Origin: an uncultured archaeon
GTDB lineage: Archaea; Asgardarchaeota; Heimdallarchaeia; Heimdallarchaeales; Heimdallarchaeaceae
Length of the DNA: 14,731 nucleotides
Assembly (NCBI GenBank): GCA_964534625.1
Contig: CAZHRF010000059.1
Location: 1 to 14,731 of the forward strand
Direction: 5' to 3'
The translations under genes and the position numbers were made by a program. Shown one piece after another: positions 47-14,341 of this stretch; the stretch's first letter is position 1, and every line of letters starts with the position of its first letter. The notes beneath the pieces were generated by a model. The model was not told where the DNA came from. It saw only the letters and a list, made by a program, of their open reading frames with translations, and made no database searches.

Positions 47-1078
47 GTGATACATCTGGAAATAGATCAATTACCTAAGTTAACCATTGGTATCTGGCCT
101 ACACCAATAACCAAATTAGAAAATCTTTCAGAAAAGTATAACACGAATTTATATATTAAGAGAGATGATTTAACAGGTGTACTATTGGGAGGAAACAAAG
201 TTAGAAAACTAGAATATTTTTTTGCTGATGCCCTATCGCAGAATAAACAAACAATTATAACTACTGGTTCAGCTCATTCTAACCACAACAGTCTAACTGT
301 GGCTATTGCTAATATGCTTGGATTATCAACCTATTTAGTCGTTGCATTGGATGAAAATGAAACTATCTCCGAGAATAAAGACATTAACGGCAATTTACTT
401 TTACAGAACCTTTCAGAAGCTAACTTTGTATTCACTAAAAAAGACGAAACTAGTAAAACAATACATACACTCTTAAAAAAATTAGAAGAAGAAGGCAAAA
501 AGCCTTATTTTATACCTGTCGGAGGGCACGCTCCTTTGGGTTTATGTGGATACATTACTGCTATGAAAGAGATACAAGCACAAAGTCAAACTTTAGGTAT
601 TAACTTTGATTATATGGCAGTTTGTGTAGGAACAGGAACAACTGCAGTAGGGTTATATTTGGGCAAAATCATCTATAACTATCCTACTGATTTAATTGGT
701 ATCAACGTCTTAAAAGACAATGAGTGCATTCTTGTTGATAGTCAACAGATAATAGCTGAATTCAATGAAAAATATAACACCAAGTATGATTTTAAAGAAG
801 CTTCCATTAGATTTGTGGATGATTACTTGACTGGAGGATATGGTAAACATGACAAATCGATTTTTGATACAATTGAACTTTTAGTGAAGGAAGAAGGAAT
901 ATTAATGGATCCCATCTATACAGCCAAATCTTTCATGGGCTTATTAAAAATGATTGAAACCGATAAAGGTATGCAAAATAAGAGTATTCTTTATATTCAT
1001 ACTGGAGGGCTTCCTATACTATTTGAAAAAGGTTCACGGGATTTCTTAGTTGATAACCTTGCAGATTTAAGACTTTAA
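47..1078 (+). CDS. dcyD: D-cysteine desulfhydrase / ACC deaminase family PLP-dependent enzyme (D-Cys desulfhydrase-type residues)
   Basis: PTPI..L, LYIKRDDLTG..LGGNKVRKLEY (PLP lysine), SNH, IPVGG, VGTGTTAVGL, DPIYTAK and IHTGG motifs. GTG start is uncertain. Confidence 0.85.
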   Translation: MIHLEIDQLPKLTIGIWPTPITKLENLSEKYNTNLYIKRDDLTGVLLGGNKVRKLEYFFADALSQNKQTIITTGSAHSNHNSLTVAIANMLGLSTYLVVALDENETISENKDINGNLLLQNLSEANFVFTKKDETSKTIHTLLKKLEEEGKKPYFIPVGGHAPLGLCGYITAMKEIQAQSQTLGINFDYMAVCVGTGTTAVGLYLGKIIYNYPTDLIGINVLKDNECILVDSQQIIAEFNEKYNTKYDFKEASIRFVDDYLTGGYGKHDKSIFDTIELLVKEEGILMDPIYTAKSFMGLLKMIETDKGMQNKSILYIHTGGLPILFEKGSRDFLVDNLADLRL

Positions 1079-3658: not shown

Positions 3659-4804
3659 TTATACCCCTTCCCAAACAAAAATATTATCAAATAGTGCTCC
3701 TTGTATCGCCCCTGACATTAATCCAATGTATCCTGATTCTAGTTTGTCATCGATAGTTTGTAACATTAAGTTCCCATCTATATATATCTCTATAGTTGAT
3801 CCACTGGCAACAACAGTATAGTCGTACCATGCGTTATCATCTCTTGTCCATTGGGTCGTATGCAATGTTATCAAGGTACCTCTGTCTTCTTGACTTACAG
3901 GATCATCTGGATGACCTGGATATCCATGTCCTTCTACATAGAATAAAGTAAGTTTTCCTGATTCCATAGTCCCATCATAATGTGGTCCATTTCTACCATC
4001 CGTTAGGGTGTGATCATTAGAATAGGTGATCATATAAAATCTAGGTATACCTTCTTCATCTGTGTTAAATCTAAATATTATACCCATTATATCGTCATCA
4101 CCATTAGCATTCAAAGAAAAGGAAATGTTCACATCTCTAAAATTGTGTTCTTCTGCATCTAAAATGGCATATTGACAATTGTTCGGTCCATATTGAAGGA
4201 CTTTATTCCCATCGTCATCTACTATCTGCCAATCAGCTATACTTATAGTTCCAATAGGATCATGGTTAGCCACATGATAATATGTCCATTTTGTATCATC
4301 AAGGTTGTCACCTATTGAATAACTTTCAAAATCTTCACTATATCTTACAATAATAGGTGAATATTCTGCAGGGATGGTTATATCAGATGTTAAAACCAAA
4401 TCTGTATAATAAATTTTTATTCTTATTTCATCGCCATATTTTATTAAATCACGTTCTATGTTCAAAGGTTCAATGCTTACCACTTTAGAGATACCTATAC
4501 CAACCTCAACAGGTGCATTTGGGCATAACCATTCCGTCAATTCTGTGTTCTTTAGTACTTCAACTTTTTCTATACTAGTCTTAGCGCTACCTATGTTTCT
4601 AACGCTTAAATCCATTTTGTCTACATATTTATTACCCTCTCTGTCATAGAAAGTGGTTTTTTCATGTAGTAATTGAGGATTCCCTGTTAACAGTGGAATA
4701 ACTGCAAAGTATACTACTGCTGAAGCTGCTACAACTAGAGCAATAAGTAATATTGTGGCTATAACTGGAGAAACAGCTTTTTTCTTAATCTTTAACATTT
4801 TCAT
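3659..4804 (-). CDS. Archaeal type IV pilin-like protein (class III signal peptide) with Ig-like domain and C-terminal ConA/L-type-lectin (TSP_C-like) domain
   Basis: N-terminus KKKA|VSPVIATILLIALVVAASAVVY is a PibD/FlaK-type cleavage site plus hydrophobic helix. aa ~45-145 are beta-rich (VRNIGS). aa ~153-381 contain YSEDFE, GDDDIMGIIFRF, WYDYTV...IEIYIDG and SGYIGL...FDNIFV. Confidence 0.8.
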   Translation of the reverse strand: MKMLKIKKKAVSPVIATILLIALVVAASAVVYFAVIPLLTGNPQLLHEKTTFYDREGNKYVDKMDLSVRNIGSAKTSIEKVEVLKNTELTEWLCPNAPVEVGIGISKVVSIEPLNIERDLIKYGDEIRIKIYYTDLVLTSDITIPAEYSPIIVRYSEDFESYSIGDNLDDTKWTYYHVANHDPIGTISIADWQIVDDDGNKVLQYGPNNCQYAILDAEEHNFRDVNISFSLNANGDDDIMGIIFRFNTDEEGIPRFYMITYSNDHTLTDGRNGPHYDGTMESGKLTLFYVEGHGYPGHPDDPVSQEDRGTLITLHTTQWTRDDNAWYDYTVVASGSTIEIYIDGNLMLQTIDDKLESGYIGLMSGAIQGALFDNIFVWEGV

Positions 4805-5058: not shown

Positions 5059-5730
5059 CTATTTGATAATTACATTTTCTCCTGTTTTTGAGTAATACCA
5101 TCTTTCAGCTATGTTACAGATATGATCACCTACACGCTCAAGATGTCGCGCAATTTGGGCTACAGCCACAATCTGTTTTATTGTCATTCCCTCTAGACAA
5201 TTTTTATCATCAAATGTTTGAAATATTTCATCATATATTTTATCAATTATTGTATCAGCGTCTATCAGTTGTTGAGGATCTGGTGTCGAATCTGTTTCAA
5301 AAGCCATTTCCAAGGTATCCATCATAAAATCTATACTATTGTATATTTTTTTTATTGGGACACGATACTCTTCTGTTGTTGGAAAAAGCATATGAAGATT
5401 CTCGATAGAGTGATAAGTATCTCTTGAAACACGTTCATAGTTTCTAATTATTTTTAGAATAGACAGAATAAAACGGAGATCACCAGCGAGCGGAGATTGT
5501 AACAAAAGTAATTCTATACAATTCCCTTCTATTTGATTGGTAAGTTGCCTTACGCTCCAGTCAATTTCTTGCGCTTTTTCAATCTTGATTTTTTCTTTCT
5601 TTCCTTCCTTTAGTTCTACAAACGCTTCGATTATTTCAATATTCTTTTTTACTAAATTGTTTAAATGTAATAGGTCTTGTTTAAGGCCTTTAAGCTTATC
5701 AGCATATTTTTTGCGTGTTGTTTTTATCAT
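5059..5730 (-). CDS. phoU: Phosphate signalling/transport accessory protein PhoU
   Basis: LQSPLAGDLRFI...YERVSRD, DTIIDKIY and ARHLERVGDHICNIAE motifs; lies directly downstream of pstB. The start is set at ATG 5730 because the upstream GTG (5739) is part of an AGGTGA SD. Confidence 0.92.
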   Translation of the reverse strand: MIKTTRKKYADKLKGLKQDLLHLNNLVKKNIEIIEAFVELKEGKKEKIKIEKAQEIDWSVRQLTNQIEGNCIELLLLQSPLAGDLRFILSILKIIRNYERVSRDTYHSIENLHMLFPTTEEYRVPIKKIYNSIDFMMDTLEMAFETDSTPDPQQLIDADTIIDKIYDEIFQTFDDKNCLEGMTIKQIVAVAQIARHLERVGDHICNIAERWYYSKTGENVIIK

Positions 5731-5744
5731 TATTTTCACCTGTA

Positions 5745-6560
5745 TTAACCAAATCTACCTGTAATATACTGTTCGGTTAAGTCTTTATCTGGTTTTTCAA
5801 AAATTTTCTCTGTATAATTATATTCTATCAATTCACCAAGATACATGAAAGCGGTTTTGTAGCTTATACGAGCAGCTTGATGCATACTATGTGTGGCAAT
5901 AACTACTGTATAATCTTTTGCTAAATCAATAAGCAAGTCCTCTATTACAGCTGCTGAAATAGGATCTAAACTCGCACACGGTTCATCAAACAGCAATATT
6001 TTGGGGAAGACTGCAAGGGTTCTCGCAATACAGAGTCTTTGTTGTTGTCCTCCCGATAGCGCAATAGCTGAATCTTCCAGACGGTCATGTATCTCATCCC
6101 ATAATCCAGCTCGCTTAAGACTAAATTCGACTATTTGATCTAACCTATCTTTATTTTTAATTCCCCGTATACGTGGTCCATAGGCTATATTATTATAGAT
6201 AGACTGAGGAAAAGGTGTAGGACGCTGAAATACCATTCCCACTTTTGTTCTCAGTTGAAAAAGATCAATTTTATTTGATAAAACATTTTTACCATCTATG
6301 ATGACCTCTCCCTTATAATTTACTATTGGCGACCTTTCATCGTTCATTCTATTAAATGTTCGTAGAAAAGTAGATTTTCCACAGCCAGAAGGACCAATCA
6401 ACGCCGTGATTTTATTCTTCTCAATATTGAGAGAGACACCTTTAACAGCGTGAAAATCTCCATAAAAAACATCCAAATCTTGTACAGAGAAGGCTATATC
6501 TTTAGGTAGGTTATTCTTTGTTACTGTTTTTTGTTTTTGAGTAGATTTTAAATTAAACAT
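5745..6560 (-). CDS. pstB: Phosphate ABC transporter ATP-binding protein PstB
   Basis: Walker [49 protein letters not shown]...QAARIS and YITGRFG. ATG 6560 follows an AAGGTGA SD; the ORF track's GTG is at 6569. Confidence 0.97.
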
Positions 6561-6584
6561 TTTTTTCACCTTATTTTTTATTGT

Positions 6585-9044
6585 TTATTCATATTTTACT
6601 TTAAATTTAGCTCGAAATATTTGCCCTATAATAAAGAGTACCATCGTCATAACAAGTAAGATCATTGCACCAGTCATCGCCCAACTTTTGGATGGATGAT
6701 TAAACCCAGGATCTTCTATAGCCAAATACCAAATTGTAAAAGGTAGCATAGCAATACCTTCTCCTCTTAATCGTGATGGATAGGCACGTGAGCTTATTTT
6801 TAGTACTGCTACAGTGAGCATAATAGGGGCTGTTTCACCTATTACCCTACTGATAGACATCAAATAACCCGTAATAATTGATGGAATAGCATAGCGTAAA
6901 TTTTGCCCTTTAATAGCTTCCCACTTCGTTGCTCCTAAAGATAGAGCGTTAAGTCTATAATGTTCTGGAACTTGTTCCAAGGCTTGAATACTAGTAGATG
7001 TAGCAATTGGGATCATCATGATAGCCAGAGTACACGCTCCTGAAAGGAAACCATGTCCCCATTTAAATATTAAGACAAACATTCCCCAGCCAAATAATCC
7101 AACTACTACACTTGGTACAGAAGCTATGTTTTGAATAGAATCTTTTACGAATTGTCCGAATTTATTTGTGGGTTTTACATAAAAGAATAAGTAAATACCA
7201 GCAAATGTACAAATGGGTAGTGCAATAAGAGCAGCAGCGCCAACAACAATAATAGACCCGAGAATTGAAGGTAACCAACCATAATTATTACCACTCCTTC
7301 TGATGGAAAAAAGATCACGTAAAGCAAAATCTTTGAATCCTTCAATAAATAAAACGATAGTTATTGCTGTTATAATCGCCAATACCCCCAGCGTAATCAA
7401 ACGGAAAAGAGTAAAAGTTATAGCTTGACGCACATGTTTGTGTTTCGATGATGTAGAGGCATTGGAAAGAAAATATTCTTGGATAAACTGTTTTTCTTCT
7501 TCAGTATTATATAGCTCGTTGTTTTTTAAACTATTATCTGTTTCATGTTGTTTTGGATGCTTCTCTTTTGAGTTCTGATTTGAACGCATGTTTTTAGTAT
7601 TATTAATGTTGGTTTTCGTAGTGATCGATTCCGCATCTAATGGCTCATTCATCCGCCTTTTTTCAATTATATTATTATGTGCATGAGGAGTGGAATAGAA
7701 CACACCTATTCCAAATATAAAAAGAAAGAACATTGAGAAGGCAGGATTAATCTCACTTAGGCTTCCATATATAATTTGTTCAATAAAAATAAGAATAATA
7801 GGAACTGTTGATAAATAAATTGATAATTTGTTTCGATTATCTGCTATTTTATGACTGAAAAAGAATAGTCCAATTGATACAAAAATTAAGATATCCAATA
7901 TAAGGATCCCTATTAAAGCTGCATGGGCAGACAGATACGTTATTGTTTCAATTATATCCCAAATTGTTGCTAATAATAGAAAGAACCACAAAATTACCGT
8001 TACTTTACCATATTTTTGATTAAACAAGTCTTTAATGCTAATCTCTTCACTTTTGATAATCTTTCTATATGATGGGAGGAAAATTTTCTTTTTAGCGATA
8101 GATCTTCCTATTCCTGTGACTAGAAATGATAAAAGTAGAAGTTCTAATGCTATAACATATAATGCAAAATACTCTGCAGTAAATAAAGCCACATTTTTGT
8201 ATTCAACAGCTATTTTAGCAGGAATAGGCGCACCTCCTTGTAGGGGGTTAAAGACACTTTTACGTAGATACCACGTTTTTGCACTAACCATAGCAACAAC
8301 CATTGTTTCTCCTATAACACGAGCGAAGGCAAGTATACAGGATGAAACAATACCTTTGATAGCATAAGGAATACTGACTTTCCAAATAACCTCTAACTTA
8401 GAGGCTCCTAGGGCTGTACCTGAATGCTTGATATCAGTTGGAACAGAATCTAGAGCTTCATCTGTAAGAGTGGCAATAAAAGGGATTGTCATAAAAGCTA
8501 ACGCGATTGACGAAGTTATCAGCACTTTCCCCGAATTTAATCCAAAAAAGTTTCGTACAAATTCTGTCAAATAAAATATGGCTAATAAACCTACAACAAC
8601 ACTTGGAATAGCATTAATTAGTTCAATTGCTGGTTTGATGATATTTTTGATATGCTTGGGGCAAATTTCTGCAAGGAATATACCAACAGATATACCAATA
8701 GGTATTACCAAAATCATCGCATAACTAGTTACAATCAGACTACTGATAAGAAGATTTTTACTCCCAAAATATCCTTCTTCGTATTCTGCTTCAGGTATCC
8801 ACTTTTCCGTAGTTATGATTTCTTTGAACAATTTAAAATCAATAAGAAATCTGCCTGTATTCGTAATAATAAATACTGTTATAAATATGACAAATAAACT
8901 CGCGAAAATAGCACAAAAAGCACTAAAATATTTAATGAATAGATCTTTTTTTTGTCTTGTCGATCGAAATCCGATGGTTTCTTGCTCAAAAAATTCTGAA
9001 CTCATAGGAGAAGTAGAATCTATATCATCATAAGATTGAGACAT
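6585..9044 (-). CDS. pstC: Fused phosphate ABC permease PstC-PstA with an extra central 4-TM segment and polar linker
   Basis: Two complete permease modules: IPSVVVGL / ALGAS / ARVIGETMVV (PstC, aa ~35-320) and VPSVVVGLFG / LSLGAT / SRVIGETAPI (PstA, aa ~540-822), in one uninterrupted frame. ATG 9044 follows an AGGTG SD; the ORF track's GTG is at 9053. Confidence 0.9.
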   Translation of the reverse strand: MSQSYDDIDSTSPMSSEFFEQETIGFRSTRQKKDLFIKYFSAFCAIFASLFVIFITVFIITNTGRFLIDFKLFKEIITTEKWIPEAEYEEGYFGSKNLLISSLIVTSYAMILVIPIGISVGIFLAEICPKHIKNIIKPAIELINAIPSVVVGLLAIFYLTEFVRNFFGLNSGKVLITSSIALAFMTIPFIATLTDEALDSVPTDIKHSGTALGASKLEVIWKVSIPYAIKGIVSSCILAFARVIGETMVVAMVSAKTWYLRKSVFNPLQGGAPIPAKIAVEYKNVALFTAEYFALYVIALELLLLSFLVTGIGRSIAKKKIFLPSYRKIIKSEEISIKDLFNQKYGKVTVILWFFLLLATIWDIIETITYLSAHAALIGILILDILIFVSIGLFFFSHKIADNRNKLSIYLSTVPIILIFIEQIIYGSLSEINPAFSMFFLFIFGIGVFYSTPHAHNNIIEKRRMNEPLDAESITTKTNINNTKNMRSNQNSKEKHPKQHETDNSLKNNELYNTEEEKQFIQEYFLSNASTSSKHKHVRQAITFTLFRLITLGVLAIITAITIVLFIEGFKDFALRDLFSIRRSGNNYGWLPSILGSIIVVGAAALIALPICTFAGIYLFFYVKPTNKFGQFVKDSIQNIASVPSVVVGLFGWGMFVLIFKWGHGFLSGACTLAIMMIPIATSTSIQALEQVPEHYRLNALSLGATKWEAIKGQNLRYAIPSIITGYLMSISRVIGETAPIMLTVAVLKISSRAYPSRLRGEGIAMLPFTIWYLAIEDPGFNHPSKSWAMTGAMILLVMTMVLFIIGQIFRAKFKVKYE

Positions 9045-9080
9045 AATTGACACCTAGTATAGTAGTTTATGAGTAATTAC

Positions 9081-9101
9081 AAAGAAAAAAACAAGAGAAA
9101 A
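9081..9101 (-). terminator. Oligo-T tract between pstS and pstCA (possible partial terminator)
   Basis: The minus strand reads TTTTCTCTTGTTTTTTTCTTT directly after the pstS stop. Confidence 0.45.
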
Positions 9102-9106
9102 GGTTT

Positions 9107-10096
9107 TTACCTTTTACTCCTAACAATTTTGCTTGAGATACCCGCTGTAGCAATCACAGCTACAATTATAGCTATCATATTCATTGGAGAGGGAGACACA
9201 TCACCCACTGTCCATCTTAAGGGATCTTCTGGAGAATAATCAGTATAATAATTAATTCCTACAGGTATATAGCCCACATAATAAACAATGCTTTGACCTT
9301 CAATACCTAAAAGGAAATCAATAAACCGACCAGCTAATCCATTAGGAACACCATCTGTAACCAAATAGAGATCTCTTGCTACGGGATAAGTTCCATCGAT
9401 AATAGTACTTACTGAAGGAGAAACTCCATTAACAGCTACATCTTTCATTGTATCATCTAAATAGGCTAATCCTATATAACCAATGGCATTTTCTTCCGTT
9501 CTTATAATATTAACAGTTTCAGGGTGTGAGGCAGTCTGAGCATGATCAGCTACTTCACCTTGAGGTACATCTCCACCATCAAGGAAAAACTCATTAAAGA
9601 AATCATGAGTACCACTATTTGCATCTCTTTCTACAACTTTTATATCTTGATCATCTCCTCCTACATCTTGCCAATTTGTATAAGTACCATTATAGATCCC
9701 AGTAATCTGCTCTATAGTTAATTCACTAACAGGATTATCAAGATGTACAACAATTACTATTCCATCAACACCTACAACGGTGATGTAAACATCAACACCA
9801 GCATCATCGGCTTGATCAAGTTCTGAACTTTTGGGTAATCGGCTCATTGCACCTATATCAGTATCACCACTAATTAGCATGGCAATACCTGTTCCACTAC
9901 CTGCTGCACCAAGATCAAAACTGATGTGAGGATAGTATTCATTATATCTTCTAGATCCTTCTTCAATAACTGGATAGACAGTACTGCTTCCATGTATTCG
10001 CAAGGTTTCTTCTGTATTTGCACTTACAGCTGTACTGAAATACGCTATTGCGAAGGTCAATATTATTATCGTTGTTACGAATGACTTTTTGTTCAT
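9107..10096 (-). CDS. pstS: Phosphate ABC transporter substrate-binding protein PstS, with signal peptide and C-terminal TM anchor
   Basis: GSSTVYP, GSGTGI, DIGAMSR, DGIVIVVH, IYNG..TNWQDVGG, RDANSGT, AIGYIG and YPVARDLY motifs. The signal peptide starts at MNKK (10096); the ORF is open to 10114. Confidence 0.95.
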   Translation of the reverse strand: MNKKSFVTTIIILTFAIAYFSTAVSANTEETLRIHGSSTVYPVIEEGSRRYNEYYPHISFDLGAAGSGTGIAMLISGDTDIGAMSRLPKSSELDQADDAGVDVYITVVGVDGIVIVVHLDNPVSELTIEQITGIYNGTYTNWQDVGGDDQDIKVVERDANSGTHDFFNEFFLDGGDVPQGEVADHAQTASHPETVNIIRTEENAIGYIGLAYLDDTMKDVAVNGVSPSVSTIIDGTYPVARDLYLVTDGVPNGLAGRFIDFLLGIEGQSIVYYVGYIPVGINYYTDYSPEDPLRWTVGDVSPSPMNMIAIIVAVIATAGISSKIVRSKR

Positions 10097-10180
10097 CTGT
10101 AATCGAGTCAACATTTATTTTCCATTTTAATATAAAATAATTCCACATATCCTCTATTAGGTTATTGTGCGCAATTAGCT

Positions 10181-10210
10181 ACTATATAGCACTATTTTTA
10201 CTATATAGTT
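10181..10210. promoter_or_regulatory. Tandem palindromic operator (ACTATATAGC-N9-ACTATATAGTT) upstream of pstS
   Basis: CTATATAG palindromes inside the copies at 10181-10190 and 10200-10210, with a 19-bp period. The same architecture occurs at 11477-11506. Confidence 0.75.
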
Positions 10211-10384
10211 ATGGTTATCTTTAATTTGTGAAATAGATAAAATCAGCACCAGCATTATCAAGAGGGAGTATGTCAGACTTCAAAAAATATAATGAAGTCC
10301 TAACAATTACCAAATAGTTGCAAACCATATATAGTAACTACTTAGAAGTTTCTTTTAATCTCAATCAATTTTAAAAAACGTAAA

Positions 10385-11407
10385 TTAATCTCTATCACTG
10401 TTTATTACAGCCTCAGCTATATCTGCAGCATAACTATTTATTCTCTCAAAACTCCTGATAAGTAATATTATCGATAGCAAATGTTCATGTTCAATCTTAG
10501 TAATCTTGTGATAAAGAGCTTGAATGTCTTTTTGTAAAACGGGTTTATTATTAGCTATATCATTAGCCTCTAGAACTTTGGTGTTAAAAAAACAACCCAT
10601 TGCATTATTATAACTATCTCTAACTTTAGAACCAATGCTTTTAATCTCATTTAAAAGAGTCTTATTTTCAATCAAAGTATCCATTTCCATAACAGCTTGG
10701 GCTATACCATAAGCGTGATCCCCAATAGCTTCAAGTCGTTTGATAACTAATTTATAATCCATCACTTGAACCATTTTTATACCCAAGTATGAACAGTATG
10801 AAAGGTCAGATAAAATAGCATTAAGCTGCCGAGATACAAGAAAATATAAGCGGTCAACAGAAGGTTCTTGAAGTGAAACAAGACGAGCTGATTCTTTGTT
10901 AAGAGTAAAAAAGGATTCTAAAGCATTTTTAAACATCTTATCAGCAAGAACGTGTGTTCGATGAATCAGTTGATTGAGATCTAAAGATTCTAAACTAGTC
11001 AGATCTTTCAGTTGAATCCAGTGATTGGACTCTTCAACAATTTCAACTCCCATAAGATTAGCGGTAAATTGTTCAATTTTAGTACGAAACTCAAAATCTA
11101 TCCCGTCCTTATCAAATAGTTTTATCAAACGATAGCCTGAAAGATATTTACTAACAATTTTCCTTAATACTAGGTTGATGTCAAGAATTTCATTAATATT
11201 TATTTCTACTTCCTTAGTACTAGCTTCTCTTTTTTTATCTTCTGACATCACAAGAAGATTGCCCTCTTGTTGAGGATAAATGACTACTGTATCACCTTTT
11301 TCTAAATCACTCATGCGAATCCAATCGATGGGAAGGGCTATAGTATATGTGCTTCCACCAGTCTTTTGGATTTTTCGTGAATAAAATTCTTCGTCTAACA
11401 TATTCAT
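10385..11407 (-). CDS. Archaeal phosphate uptake regulator (N-terminal AbrB/SpoVT DNA-binding domain + two PhoU domains)
   Basis: RKIQKTGGSTYTIALPIDW..LEKGD.V (AbrB-like), SKYLSGY, LMGVEIVEES, VDRLYFL, KRLEAIGDHA and FERINSYAADIAE. The true start is probably 11407 or 11401; the extension to 11545 looks non-coding and overlaps the operator. Confidence 0.9.
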   Translation of the reverse strand: MNMLDEEFYSRKIQKTGGSTYTIALPIDWIRMSDLEKGDTVVIYPQQEGNLLVMSEDKKREASTKEVEININEILDINLVLRKIVSKYLSGYRLIKLFDKDGIDFEFRTKIEQFTANLMGVEIVEESNHWIQLKDLTSLESLDLNQLIHRTHVLADKMFKNALESFFTLNKESARLVSLQEPSVDRLYFLVSRQLNAILSDLSYCSYLGIKMVQVMDYKLVIKRLEAIGDHAYGIAQAVMEMDTLIENKTLLNEIKSIGSKVRDSYNNAMGCFFNTKVLEANDIANNKPVLQKDIQALYHKITKIEHEHLLSIILLIRSFERINSYAADIAEAVINSDRD

Positions 11408-11476
11408 AATGCGTTTAAAATACATCAATATATAGTTTATTGAATTGCACAATATTATTAGCAAAAAATAAATACA

Positions 11477-11507
11477 ACTATATAGCAACAATAGAACTAT
11501 ATAGTTC
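11477..11507. promoter_or_regulatory. Tandem palindromic operator (ACTATATAGC-N9-ACTATATAGTT) upstream of the AbrB-PhoU regulator
   Basis: Copies at 11477-11486 and 11496-11506. The second copy lies within the perfect 14-bp palindrome GAACTATATAGTTC (11494-11507). Confidence 0.75.
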
Positions 11508-11776
11508 ACTATTGTTTTCAGTAAAGAGTTGATAATGAATTTCATAAAGGGAAAAAAAACAATACATATTTGTTACGTATTCTCTGATTTCCCTTGTATT
11601 TCCTTTGTTTTTTTCACTGTTTAACCATCCTTTCTTGTTCTGTTCTACATAAACCAGACGGAGTGTGATAAGATGGAGTAGACTGTCATTCCTCTGTTAC
11701 TAACTGTTTATTTGTTTTTTTGTTCCTCTCCAGTACAGAATCATTCAAAGACTTTTAATATAAAAAGAGGAAAATT

Positions 11777-12835
11777 ATGGACGAGAAAAAAAAAATGACT
11801 GAAAAGATATGTTCTGTTCTCACAAAAAATCAAACCATTCTTGCTCAAAAAATAATGGATAAACACTATGAAAAAAACCTTGACATGAAAATTAACTATT
11901 CTAATAAAGAGAAAAAAGCTGCACTAGAAGATACAGAGTTTCATCTAAAATATTTAATAGAAGCACTTAGATTTGAAGAATCAAAATTATTTAGATACTA
12001 CATTTCTTGGGTGAAAGAGTTATTTATAGGCTTAAATTTGAATATAGAAGGACTGAAAGAGAACTTACAGATCATGCAATCAGTGATCAGAGAGACTTTC
12101 CCTAAATATTATGAAACGATTAATGAATATTTGAACGAAGGCATAAGAGAAACAGAGCAAAAAATTGTTTTAACTCAAACATATATAACAGAAAATCAAC
12201 CATACGCCGAGCTTACACAAGAGTATGTTAATGCCTTATTAGAGAGAGATAAACAAAAGGCACTTAAACTTATTCTGGGTGAAATAGACAAAGGTACGGC
12301 TATAAAAGACTTGTATTTACATGTTTTTCAGCTATCCCAATGGGAAATTGGCCGTTTATGGCAAAACAACGAGATATCTGTAGCTCAAGAACACTATTGT
12401 ACATCAGCGACCCAACTAATTATGGGGCAATTATATCAACATTTAATATCTTCAGAAAGAAAAAATAAAATACTTATTGCTACTTGTGTTGGCAAAGAAT
12501 TACATGAACTGGGTATACGTATGGTATCCAACCTATTTGAGCTAGATGGATGGGATACTTATTACTTAGGTGCCAATATGCCTTCAGGGGAGATTATAAC
12601 TATAATAAAGGACATACAACCAGATCTTATTGCATTATCAACAACTATTGTATATCATCTTTCTGAAATGAAAAATTTGGTTTCAACTATAAAACAAGAT
12701 TATACAACAACAAAAGTTGTGGTTGGCGGATACCCTTTTAATTTAATAAAAAATCTATGGAAAAAGATAGGAGCTGATGGATATGCGCCAGATGCTGAAA
12801 AAGCAGTTAAATTAGGGAATGAATTAGTAGGATAA
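11777..12835 (+). CDS. Cobalamin-binding sensor protein: N-terminal globin/phycobiliprotein-like helical domain + B12 cap + Rossmann B12-binding domain (photocobilin/CarH-like)
   Basis: W195-x9-E205H206 (WQNNEISVAQEH), E241-x-H243-xx-G246, YLGANMP, DLIALSTT, VVVGGYP and GADGYAPDA. GAGG SD at 11767-11770. Confidence 0.85.
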   Translation: MDEKKKMTEKICSVLTKNQTILAQKIMDKHYEKNLDMKINYSNKEKKAALEDTEFHLKYLIEALRFEESKLFRYYISWVKELFIGLNLNIEGLKENLQIMQSVIRETFPKYYETINEYLNEGIRETEQKIVLTQTYITENQPYAELTQEYVNALLERDKQKALKLILGEIDKGTAIKDLYLHVFQLSQWEIGRLWQNNEISVAQEHYCTSATQLIMGQLYQHLISSERKNKILIATCVGKELHELGIRMVSNLFELDGWDTYYLGANMPSGEIITIIKDIQPDLIALSTTIVYHLSEMKNLVSTIKQDYTTTKVVVGGYPFNLIKNLWKKIGADGYAPDAEKAVKLGNELVG

Positions 12836-12841
12836 ATATTT

Positions 12842-14341
12842 ATGGTTATAAAAACAGGCATTATTGTTTTAACTACAATAAATGGCAAAATCATTGAAAT
12901 AGTTAATACTGGAACTATTTCAGAATTAAACAATTATTCAAGTTTAGATACGATACCACACGATAATAAAAAATTTAGAGAATTACTAACTGAGATAGAA
13001 AAAAAAGGATATTCTTTCTCAAAAGAAGTGAAATTAAAGCTAAATGGAGTTCATACATACTATTTTGCAGGATCTAAAAGCGCGAATAAAATAGTACTTT
13101 TTGGTTGTAAGTCGAAATTGAACTTACTAAGGATGTTTGACAGATTGAGTAGTTTAAAGCCATTTTCTAAGTATTTAGAACCTTTATCACCAATCATTCA
13201 AAAAGAATTTGAAAAAATTGATGACCAATATGCCTTTTTAGACGAGCAAAGTTCTATAGTTAATGAACTTATCAACACGCAAAGGGAGTTATCATTAAAA
13301 AATATTAAAATAGAAAAAGAACGATTAAGATATGAAGTTACACTAAAAAATATTGAAGAAGCAGTTATATCAACCGATAGAAATTTCTGTATCCGTTTTA
13401 TTAATCAAAGAGCTGAGTTATTAATGGGGATTTCGCAAAGTAATGTTTTAAATAAGCAAGTGCAAAAAGTCCTACAACTTTATGATGAAAATTCAACAGA
13501 AGTTGGGTTTGATTGGTTTATAGAAAGAAAAAGGATTATATTTCAAGATTATATTGCATTGATTCATAAAGATGGAATCCGCATACCAATCGTAGGCGCG
13601 ATTTCAATATTAAAACATCAAAATACGGTTTTTGGCTATTTAATTGCTCTTTCCGATATAAGCGAAAGGAAGGAGATGATTGAAGAAAAAGAGAGAATTA
13701 ATCAATTATTAGAGATATTAAACCAAATTTTAAGACATGACATTAATAACAAAATTATCATCCTCAATTATGTTTTATCTGAATTAGAGGATAAGGAATC
13801 AATTTTATATCAACAAGGAGCCAAAGCATTAAAATCCATAGAAAAAATAATTGAAAGAGTCAAAAATATTGAAGAAGCAGTAAAAGAACAAGTTAAATTA
13901 GAAGTGTATCCATTGACAAAGATTATACAAGAGATTATGGGATCATATGATATCAGTTACCAAATAGAAGGGAAAGGAAAAGTCTGGGGTGATGGTGCTA
14001 TTTACTCTGTTGTACAAAACATTGTAAATAATGCTGTTTTACATGGAAAAGCAGAAAGTATCAAATTCATTATCGAGCAAGAAGAAGAGCACGTGATCTT
14101 GAATATAATAGATGATGGTAAAGGGATTAAACCAAATATAAAGAAACAAATATTCGAAAAAGGATTTAAATACGGAGAAACAGGAAATACGGGATTAGGA
14201 TTATACATTGTACAACAAATTATGCTCCGTTATAAAGGAAGTGTGTCTGTAGAACCAATTAAGCCAAAAGGTACAAATTTTAAATTGTATTTCTATAATG
14301 CTGAAGGTATTTCAAAAAAAGAATTAAACAAAAGAATATGA
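12842..14341 (+). CDS. Soluble PAS-domain sensor histidine kinase
   Basis: PAS (TLKNIEEAVISTD...FINQRAELLMG...DISERK), H-box ILRHDINN, N-box NIVNNAVLHG, G1 DDGKGI, F-box IFEKGF and G2 GNTGLGLYIV. No TM segments are evident. It starts 6 nt after the B12 gene. Confidence 0.92.
   Translation: MVIKTGIIVLTTINGKIIEIVNTGTISELNNYSSLDTIPHDNKKFRELLTEIEKKGYSFSKEVKLKLNGVHTYYFAGSKSANKIVLFGCKSKLNLLRMFDRLSSLKPFSKYLEPLSPIIQKEFEKIDDQYAFLDEQSSIVNELINTQRELSLKNIKIEKERLRYEVTLKNIEEAVISTDRNFCIRFINQRAELLMGISQSNVLNKQVQKVLQLYDENSTEVGFDWFIERKRIIFQDYIALIHKDGIRIPIVGAISILKHQNTVFGYLIALSDISERKEMIEEKERINQLLEILNQILRHDINNKIIILNYVLSELEDKESILYQQGAKALKSIEKIIERVKNIEEAVKEQVKLEVYPLTKIIQEIMGSYDISYQIEGKGKVWGDGAIYSVVQNIVNNAVLHGKAESIKFIIEQEEEHVILNIIDDGKGIKPNIKKQIFEKGFKYGETGNTGLGLYIVQQIMLRYKGSVSVEPIKPKGTNFKLYFYNAEGISKKELNKRI

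Follow-up and report, generated by a model that had tools for sequence, protein, structure and literature searches.

A photoglobin-B12 sensor and its partner histidine kinase in an Asgard archaeon

Contig CAZHRF010000059.1 was analysed here from end to end (14,731 bp, hereafter the window), and belongs to a genome bin of 3.37 Mb, 89.8% complete and with a G+C content of about 32%. The subject of this work is P0001, one of the open reading frames (ORFs) listed for the window, whose translation is a protein of 352 amino acids (aa) joining a globin-like N-terminal domain to a cobalamin (B12)-binding module; it is followed by P0121, the gene of a histidine kinase, whose start codon lies 6 nucleotides (nt) past the stop codon of P0001. 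We will refer to the two products as the sensor and the kinase. The sensor is an uncharacterised member of the published photoglobin-B12 family, accompanied by the family's usual partner kinase, in an Asgard archaeon. The explanation that we favour for the locus, with a probability of roughly 0.6, is a stand-alone photoglobin-B12 light sensor signalling through the co-transcribed kinase.

The coordinates of the genes, domains and motifs are collected in Table 1. Pfam recognizes a B12-binding_2 domain (aa 148-219, E 1e-12) and a B12-binding domain (aa 233-344, E 2e-21) in the sensor, and the same search gave no MerR, helix-turn-helix (HTH) or other DNA-binding domain in it, in agreement with an earlier note on this DNA, made by a model from the letters and their ORFs. 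An AlphaFold2 (AF2) model built from 32 relatives, with a predicted local distance difference test score (pLDDT) of 94 and a predicted template modelling score (pTM) of 0.89, places seven helices in aa 2-127, followed by a four-helix bundle and a Rossmann domain. The helical N-domain of about 125 aa proposed in that note is therefore seen in the model, and the N-terminal strings quoted there do occur in the sensor (aa 41-64 and aa 78-88).

Table 1. Features of the sensor-kinase locus and of its divergent neighbours (positions in the window).
Feature	Position	Strand	Basis
Sensor gene P0001: photoglobin + B12-binding_2 + B12-binding, 352 aa	11777..12835	+	Pfam; AF2 model, pLDDT 94
Photoglobin (phycobiliprotein-like globin) domain, aa 1-130	11777..12166	+	profile search against PDB; PF00502; helices in aa 2-127
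A48-A-L-E-D52, counterpart of the phycobiliprotein C-x-R-D bilin motif	11918..11932	+	alignments; motif as in PMC10151467 and PMC10979010
Trp78, invariant, counterpart of SasPcob Trp296	12008..12010	+	alignments; PMC10979010
Four-helix-bundle cap (B12-binding_2), aa 144-219	12206..12433	+	PF02607, E 1e-12; model helices 144-218
G192-x-x-W195 ... E205-H206 (GxxW and W-x9-EH)	12350..12394	+	translation; invariant in 32 relatives; signature from PMC11796333
Rossmann-type B12-binding domain, aa 229-352	12461..12832	+	PF02310, E 2e-21; Foldseek to 8J2W and 8JBS
E241-L-H243-E-L-G246, lower axial His ligand motif	12497..12514	+	His243 at 12503-12505, invariant
G265-A-N-M-P269, GxxxP element of the light-responsive signature	12569..12583	+	alignment; sequence; published signature
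Partner histidine kinase P0121, 499 aa	12842..14341	+	Pfam PAS and HATPase_c; synteny in 83/99 loci
Kinase N-domain, aa 1-105, divergent PAS fold	12842..13156	+	locus HMM, E 2.8e-26 for the window; AF2; Foldseek
Long helix with conserved motif NNEL-x-N-x-QREL-x-KKN	13157..13327	+	alignment A3; model helix 106-162
Canonical PAS domain, aa 163-275	13328..13666	+	Pfam PAS/PAS_9; TIGR00229
Putative phospho-acceptor H-box, L-R-H299-D-I-N-N	13730..13750	+	placed by position between PAS and HATPase_c
HATPase_c catalytic domain, aa 387-484	14000..14293	+	PF02518, E 7e-20
Divergent intergenic region (231 nt) between PhoU-type regulator and sensor	11546..11776	.	TATA-like AT-rich stretch; GAGG just before ATG
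Regulator, AbrB/MazE-type N-domain fused to two PhoU domains, 386 aa	10385-11545	-	
PstS	9107-10114	-	
PstC-PstA single fusion permease, 822 aa	6585-9053	-	
PstB	5745-6569	-	
PhoU	5059-5739	-	

The B12 module and the globin domain

Over the B12 half, the closest solved relatives by sequence are the photocobilins 8J2W and 8J2X (E 1.5e-22). The cap and Rossmann domains assigned by Pfam are likewise recovered by structure, as Foldseek superposes this half on 8J2W with a root mean square deviation of 1.7 Å over 205 columns, and also on the light-responsive CtMerR domain 8JBS, ranking methionine synthase, corrinoid proteins and CarH below both. The residues of the adenosyl pocket are all present: Trp195 (12359-12361) and Glu205-His206 (12389-12394) form the W-x9-EH motif that had been read at nt 12359-12394, and His243 is the ligand of the ExHxxG motif, a (D/E)xHxxG element whose His had been placed at the very same codon. 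The four residues are invariant in the 32 relatives, and so are G265 and P269. A signature of four elements (GxxW, EH, GxxH and GxxxP) has been described for light-responsive cobalamin domains, distinguishing them from other cobalamin-binding domains (PMC11796333); GxxW, EH and GxxxP match exactly in the sensor, that is, three of the four published elements. The residue after Trp195 is Gln196, as in SasPcob, whereas CarH carries at this position the His used for bis-His ligation in its light state. Regarding cofactor supply, the genome encodes a CobA/CobO-type adenosyltransferase, and a PduO-type enzyme was not found in the genome search.

Database names would lead to a different protein, namely a corrinoid carrier of a methyltransferase system (MtaC/MtbC/MtgC type), since the best NCBIfam E-values belong to the MtgC and MtbC models and the JGI names several relatives 'methanogenic corrinoid protein MtbC1'. 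The scores are nonetheless far under the cut-offs (65.9 vs 370 bits and 56 vs 350), no methyltransferase gene adjoins the sensor, the conserved neighbour is a kinase, and both W-x9-EH and a globin domain are present; furthermore, the genome holds one protein of the sensor's type, its other PF02310 matches lying in open frames of 440-475 aa. We consider the corrinoid carrier effectively refuted. In this sense, the expectation that such proteins are commonly mis-annotated is borne out by the source names of close relatives, which besides the MtbC1 label include 'MerR family ... light-induced transcriptional regulator' and 'methylmalonyl-CoA mutase cobalamin-binding domain'.

The globin is N-terminal of the B12 module in the sensor and C-terminal in the solved photocobilins, so that a sequential aligner cannot show both halves together; as Foldseek with the whole sensor aligned the B12 half only, the N-domain was tested by profile search. 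The Phycobilisome family (PF00502) matches the whole sensor with an E-value of 0.0027 (aa 11-121), and aa 1-135 with 3.4e-4, at 18.1-21.1 bits, just under the gathering score of 22.2. The match begins at profile position 33-34, the first (assembly) helix pair of phycobiliproteins being absent; with this sub-threshold score, the missing helix pair and Ala49 in place of the Cys, the domain is not a member of the phycobiliprotein family proper. A hidden Markov model (HMM) of 32 family N-domains (profile A2), searched against the PDB, matches allophycocyanin and phycocyanin chains (best E 7e-9) as well as the globin domains of the photocobilins 8J2Y, 8J2X and 8J2W (E 6e-4 to 1e-3, 8J2Y giving 6e-4), and HMMER with the single sequence yields a second, weak stretch pairing aa 41-97 with a photocobilin globin. 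By the scores of both PF00502 and the family profile, the resemblance to phycobiliproteins remarked on in the earlier note is beyond chance. The sensor thus contains a fused phycobiliprotein-like globin, in a globin-first order that is found in Schneider et al. (2021) but in no solved structure.

The pocket of this domain is well conserved. In the alignment with phycobiliproteins, the Asp of their C-x-R-D motif is matched by Asp52, the equivalent of SasPcob Asp270 (D49 of photoglobin), and Trp78 is the equivalent of SasPcob Trp296, once an offset of six between the numbering of the deposited chain and that of the paper is taken into account; both residues are kept. In SasPcob they bind biliverdin and bridge to the corrin, Trp296 contacting the D ring of the bilin and the corrin (Zhang et al., 2024; PMC10979010). 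D52, H56, L60, Y75 and W78 are invariant in the 32 relatives, whose identity is about 42%. Because the phycobiliprotein Cys position is taken by Ala49, a covalent bilin link is not expected.

The photoglobin family was defined by computation (Schneider et al., 2021; PMC8717448), its domain being fused “either before or after” B12-binding_2 plus B12-binding in many bacteria and in archaea (Methanoregula appears in the alignment and figure). AlphaFold gave the same mutual arrangement of the three domains whatever their order; the pocket was described as having a conserved Asp and a hydrophobic residue, with a variable distal position (Cys, Ser or Thr), and the neighbourhoods as dominated by two-component genes and rich in histidine kinases, PAS being listed among the sensor domains of neighbours. 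Two globin-last members were later shown to bind adenosylcobalamin (AdoCbl) and biliverdin, to respond across the visible spectrum and to change their quaternary state (Zhang et al., 2024; PMC10979010), and photoglobins have been assigned to a larger clade whose globins bind bilins (Rockwell et al., 2023; PMC10151467). The sensor almost certainly belongs to this photoglobin-B12 (photocobilin) family, and the description “photocobilin-like” given to it earlier is well chosen: its B12 half is closest to 8J2W/8J2X, its N-domain is a phycobiliprotein-like globin, and D52 and W78 are kept. As Schneider et al. (2021) already describe photoglobin-B12 fusions beside kinases, it does not constitute a new system.

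Likenesses and differences with respect to known systems can be listed as follows. With the photocobilins SasPcob and AbPcob/AbDPcob (8J2W, 8J2X, 8J2Y), the sensor shares a cap-plus-Rossmann B12 half (about 29-30% identity by Foldseek), W-x9-EH, the His lower ligand, Gln rather than His after the Trp, and a phycobiliprotein-like globin in the same chain with counterparts of Asp270 and Trp296 and no Cys for bilin attachment. It differs in that the globin comes first instead of last, an order known from sequence; in that its output is a separate kinase, whereas SasPcob is stand-alone and AbDPcob is fused to a diguanylate cyclase; and in that it occurs in an archaeon, for which no enzyme of bilin synthesis could be recognised. 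The sensor is itself a member of the photoglobin family; the purely computational work on that family (PMC8717448) is silent on Asgard archaea, pays no particular attention to the PAS domain, invisible to Pfam, that opens the partner gene, and gives distal residues that do not include the Ala found here. CarH/LitR proteins (TtCarH, PDB 5C8D and others) have in common with the sensor the B12 module, the adenosyl-pocket signature (GxxW, EH and GxxxP) and, as presumed trigger, the light-driven loss of the adenosyl group; unlike them, the sensor has no MerR domain and reaches 53 bits against a CarH equivalog cut-off of 400, carries Gln196 in place of the bis-His His, and adds a globin and a kinase output. 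Lastly, BBAG-2 proteins (PMC10151467) belong to the same larger globin clade, are encoded beside B12-binding proteins and have been shown to bind bilins; on the other hand, they are separate proteins with an RGMC motif, encoded with pre-PcyA reductases and heme oxygenases, whereas the window globin is fused and neither enzyme was found.

The partner kinase and the proposed signalling path

Gene pairing was studied in loci from one genome per species (the 80 best loci) and from genomes of the host phylum; 99 of these loci contain a full-length sensor. In 83 of these 99 loci, the next gene on the same strand opens with a domain homologous to the first ~160-165 aa of the window kinase, usually 3-30 nt past the end of the sensor. 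Most partner genes encode proteins of about 400 aa, made up of this domain and a kinase core, and in a few the domain stands by itself or forms part of a larger product; the canonical PAS domain of the window kinase is an extra insert, which most partner kinases lack. The window protein has the HATPase_c domain and the candidate His helix of a sensor histidine kinase, its H-box being assigned by position only, and no Pfam match to HisKA was obtained in it.

No Pfam family matches aa 1-160 of the kinase. The alignment of the partner N-domain (A3) shows a beta-rich core followed by the helix with the conserved motif, which in the window kinase reads N-E-L-I-N-T-Q-R-E-L (13262-13291). Its AF2 model (pLDDT 91) comprises a five-stranded PAS-type core and a 57-residue helix, and the top Foldseek matches are PAS domains, with template modelling (TM) scores of 0.60-0.66 by target and E-values of about 2e-3; PpsR PAS domains (4L9G and 4HH2) are among them. 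AerR, an antirepressor that binds B12, acts together with CrtJ, a homologue of PpsR. With the AerR-CrtJ/PpsR pairs there is a functional analogy, in that a stand-alone B12 protein is presumed to bind a PAS domain of its partner; the output differs, being here a kinase and not a DNA-binding repressor, and the partners are likened by analogy of function. A complex prediction for the sensor (alignment A1) with the kinase N-domain (A3) scored 0.01 against a mark of 0.32, which is evidence neither way.

For cofactor binding, light response, sensor-kinase contact and output, we infer the following course of events. By homology, the sensor would bind AdoCbl in the base-off/His-on form, with His243 as the lower ligand, while Trp195 and Glu205-His206 would hold the adenosyl group beneath the four-helix cap; the globin would pack on the corrin edge through Trp78, its Asp52-centred pocket being available for a linear tetrapyrrole. 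Light would then break the Co-C bond and displace the Glu-His helix, with a shift of oligomeric state or surface, as in SasPcob. The near-obligate pairing of the two genes suggests that the divergent PAS domain at the start of the kinase would read this change and pass it along the conserved helix to the kinase core, altering autophosphorylation, and the signal would be handed to a response regulator encoded elsewhere. AdoCbl-based light sensing, taken as a separate proposition, appears to us somewhat better than an even bet.

Divergently from the sensor lies a complete phosphate-uptake cluster (5059-11545, minus strand). This neighbourhood, with an AbrB/PhoU-type regulator next to the sensor, PstS, a PstC-PstA fusion, PstB and PhoU, and with a 231-nt intergenic region shared by both sides, raises the idea that the kinase acts in phosphate regulation in a PhoR-like manner, tying phosphate uptake to light or B12 status. 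We regard this as improbable: the families that recur from locus to locus are those of the sensor and the kinase alone, with no gene of the pst side recurring beside the sensor, and the PhoR model covers just the catalytic domain of the kinase, at 59 bits against a cut-off of 334; the end of the contig, 390 nt past the kinase, limits the view of the wider context. From its sequence, the shared intergenic region would be a promoter region; a sigma-70 promoter scan gave background levels, this model not being meaningful for an archaeon. Within 11746-11797, a TATA-like AT-rich stretch stands only ~10-20 nt ahead of the annotated ATG (11777), with GAGG at -9; the second in-frame Met of the sensor, codon 7 (11795), may be the true start, and the transcript may be leaderless.

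Other observations concern the remaining neighbours. One further recurrent family includes a window gene (about 237 aa, unannotated); it was seen in 9 loci, where its median distance to the sensor is ~5.7 kb. A “family” on the opposite strand in 12 loci was discarded as spurious frames, several of which overlap the sensor gene. At 3659-4804 (minus strand) the window encodes a 381-aa protein with an archaeal type IV pilin/archaellin N-terminal signal and a 3-keto-disaccharide-hydrolase/lectin-like domain, which looks like a pilin-anchored sugar-binding or hydrolase surface protein. At 47-1078 (plus strand) there is a pyridoxal phosphate (PLP) enzyme of the D-cysteine desulfhydrase/ACC-deaminase family, below all equivalog cut-offs and about equidistant from the D-cysteate sulfo-lyase CuyA and the coenzyme M enzyme XcbE.

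Host, habitat and distribution

The contig is archaeal, as it carries an archaeal topoisomerase I above the equivalog cut-off and the archaeal pilin signal. The genome also encodes an ESCRT-II EAP30 protein above its cut-off, which no control archaeon reaches, and this fits the Asgard assignment; searches of the genome for profilin (PF00235) and bacteriorhodopsin (PF01036) gave no match, but the controls were silent too, and hence both are uninformative. Among public runs, the stretch was found in four only; they come from a single study, carry the label microbial mat metagenome and probably represent the source sample, and no RNA run is listed among them. This Asgard archaeon apparently comes from a microbial mat. 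A heliorhodopsin is encoded in the genome (C5:5729-6484, locus L086; E 4e-85), a family present in 131 of the 400 genomes of the phylum searched.

The database search returned thousands of proteins matching the sensor query, and about 80 genome loci have the same two-gene layout. Within the host's order, one of 40 other genomes contains the sensor; within the phylum, a full-length copy is found in 18 of the 400 genomes, from seven families. In a tree of 97 sensors, the branch of the window protein is long and falls, together with further Asgard copies and a few sequences from Bacteroidota, Spirochaetota and Cloacimonadota, in a group without resolution; overall, the Asgard copies form several unresolved groups near one another. 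The window protein is deviant in composition, and neither a donor nor a single Asgard origin is inferable. The only methanogen copy among the 80 best loci, from a metagenome-assembled genome of Methanotrichaceae (L007, DATMZB010000636.1), is nested in a Chloroflexota clade, a position pointing to acquisition from bacteria; downstream of this copy, a frame of 251 aa starts 287 nt past the sensor. Several Asgard genomes also encode stand-alone B12-binding proteins of about 220 aa with cap and Rossmann domain and no globin (L105-L115, e.g., G307:C7:150920-151549), which match the sensor's B12 half with E-values of ~1e-22 and could represent either the module in split form or corrinoid proteins unrelated to it.

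Weighing light, pigment and cobalamin status

Several results speak against the favoured explanation. The GxxH element is inexact, reading G-K-E-L-H, one residue too long, and its position also varies among relatives; Ala49 stands in the family alignment where many relatives carry a distal Cys, Ser or Thr; no experiment on the globin-first order turned up in the literature searched; and no response regulator adjoins the pair, either here, where the contig ends shortly after the kinase, or in the related loci. Regarding the pigment, canonical heme oxygenase (PF01126) was found neither in this genome, at its 89.8% completeness, nor in any of the 400 Asgard genomes, the control genomes being positive; HutW, for anaerobic heme opening, is not in the genome either (best 30 bits against a cut-off of 400), and its six-frame translation gave no match to an HMM built for the sensor-linked ABM family. 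With regard to habitat, heliorhodopsin is not enriched among the Asgard carriers of the sensor (8/18 vs 123/382, Fisher p 0.31) and, with this p-value and genomes that are not independent, no association can be claimed; in addition, many of the carriers at large are strict anaerobes from environments without light (e.g., Methanotrichaceae, Syntrophaceae, Cloacimonadaceae and Anaerolineae), which sits uneasily with a role confined to light.

The ABM family just mentioned (IsdG/MhuD-like, ~100 aa) is encoded directly upstream of the sensor in 16 bacterial loci (L075:5695-5991, L013:5663-5959, L058:867-1169 and 13 more); across the loci, no other neighbour is conserved besides the kinase. Its product is a candidate non-canonical heme-cleaving enzyme supplying the ligand of the globin, and its position in these loci fits a tetrapyrrole ligand for that domain. 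All 18 full-length sensors of the phylum are found in genomes negative for heme oxygenase, and all have an intact pocket.

The word “bilin” used for the sensor in the earlier note is therefore tentative for this organism: the pocket residues Asp52 and Trp78 are kept, whereas no heme oxygenase, HutW or ABM gene was found and the Cys position is Ala49. An invariant pocket in a cell with no recognised bilin enzyme means that the occupant is an exogenous or unknown tetrapyrrole, that an unrecognisable enzyme makes it, or that the globin has a bilin-free role as suggested for AbDPcob. That a bilin is actually bound in this archaeon is, in our judgement, open to some doubt, with the odds slightly against. 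As a variant of the favoured explanation, the sensor would respond to light by means of AdoCbl only, its globin, with the pocket empty or filled by cyanobacterial bilins of neighbours, shielding the corrin and shaping the interface. The lack of heme oxygenase across the 400 genomes and of HutW and the linked ABM protein in this one speak for it, as do Ala49 at the site of covalent attachment and the precedent of AbDPcob, whose biliverdin occupancy is about 20% and for whose globin another role was suggested (PMC10979010). Against it stand the invariant Asp52, Trp78, H56, L60 and Y75, together with the weak binder AbPcob, in which the Asp is replaced by His (PMC10979010); these observations argue that selection still maintains the pocket for a ligand. 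We hold this variant as a tentative possibility.

A more distant rival dispenses with light. The protein would be a dark cobalamin sensor reporting B12 availability, upper ligand or redox state and gating the kinase accordingly, with light playing no physiological role and the globin serving as a cap or second ligand site; AerR/PpaA-type antirepressors, which respond to the form of cobalamin, offer a precedent. Such a role would suit a module common in strict anaerobes of digesters and sediments, the failure to find a bilin-making enzyme in the genome or in the 400 genomes of the phylum searched, the lack of association with heliorhodopsin, the PpsR PAS domains among the structural matches of the kinase N-domain, and the fact that archaea are not known to use B12 riboswitches; since heliorhodopsin is not enriched and many carriers are anaerobes of dark habitats, it is a real rival. 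Nevertheless, GxxW, W-x9-EH and GxxxP are invariant family-wide and belong to a signature that marks light-responsive domains (PMC11796333), the nearest characterised relatives are photoreceptors, and AdoCbl bound in a pocket of this kind is photolabile by nature and would be affected by light in any case; furthermore, the host has a heliorhodopsin, and the only runs with the DNA are labelled microbial mat, although they are probably its source sample. On balance we consider a dark role unlikely. Equally unlikely is a joint reading in which the pocket is filled by a pigment that the cell does not make, the sensor-kinase pair then reporting light and phototrophic neighbours, or else the sensor reports B12 status; the pigment may be phycocyanobilin or biliverdin from mat cyanobacteria, or some other tetrapyrrole breakdown product.

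Besides the Asgard host, the present analysis adds to the published family a PAS start of the partner gene that is invisible to Pfam and recurs in 83 of 99 loci, and the finding that none of the 400 Asgard genomes searched has a canonical heme oxygenase. Photoreceptors that combine B12 with a bilin-type pigment have come to notice only recently, and the form tested so far is globin-last only, whereas the globin-first form, with a kinase of its own, is much more common. Its range extends to Asgard archaea, apparently in a light-stratified mat, where it occurs together with heliorhodopsin. For signal transfer, it offers two delimited partners, the sensor and residues 1-160 of the kinase. If the B12-status alternative were true, no protein-based B12-gated two-component system would have been described in archaea before this one. 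More broadly, the locus sharpens the question of what fills the conserved pocket of the globin where an organism has no known route to a bilin.

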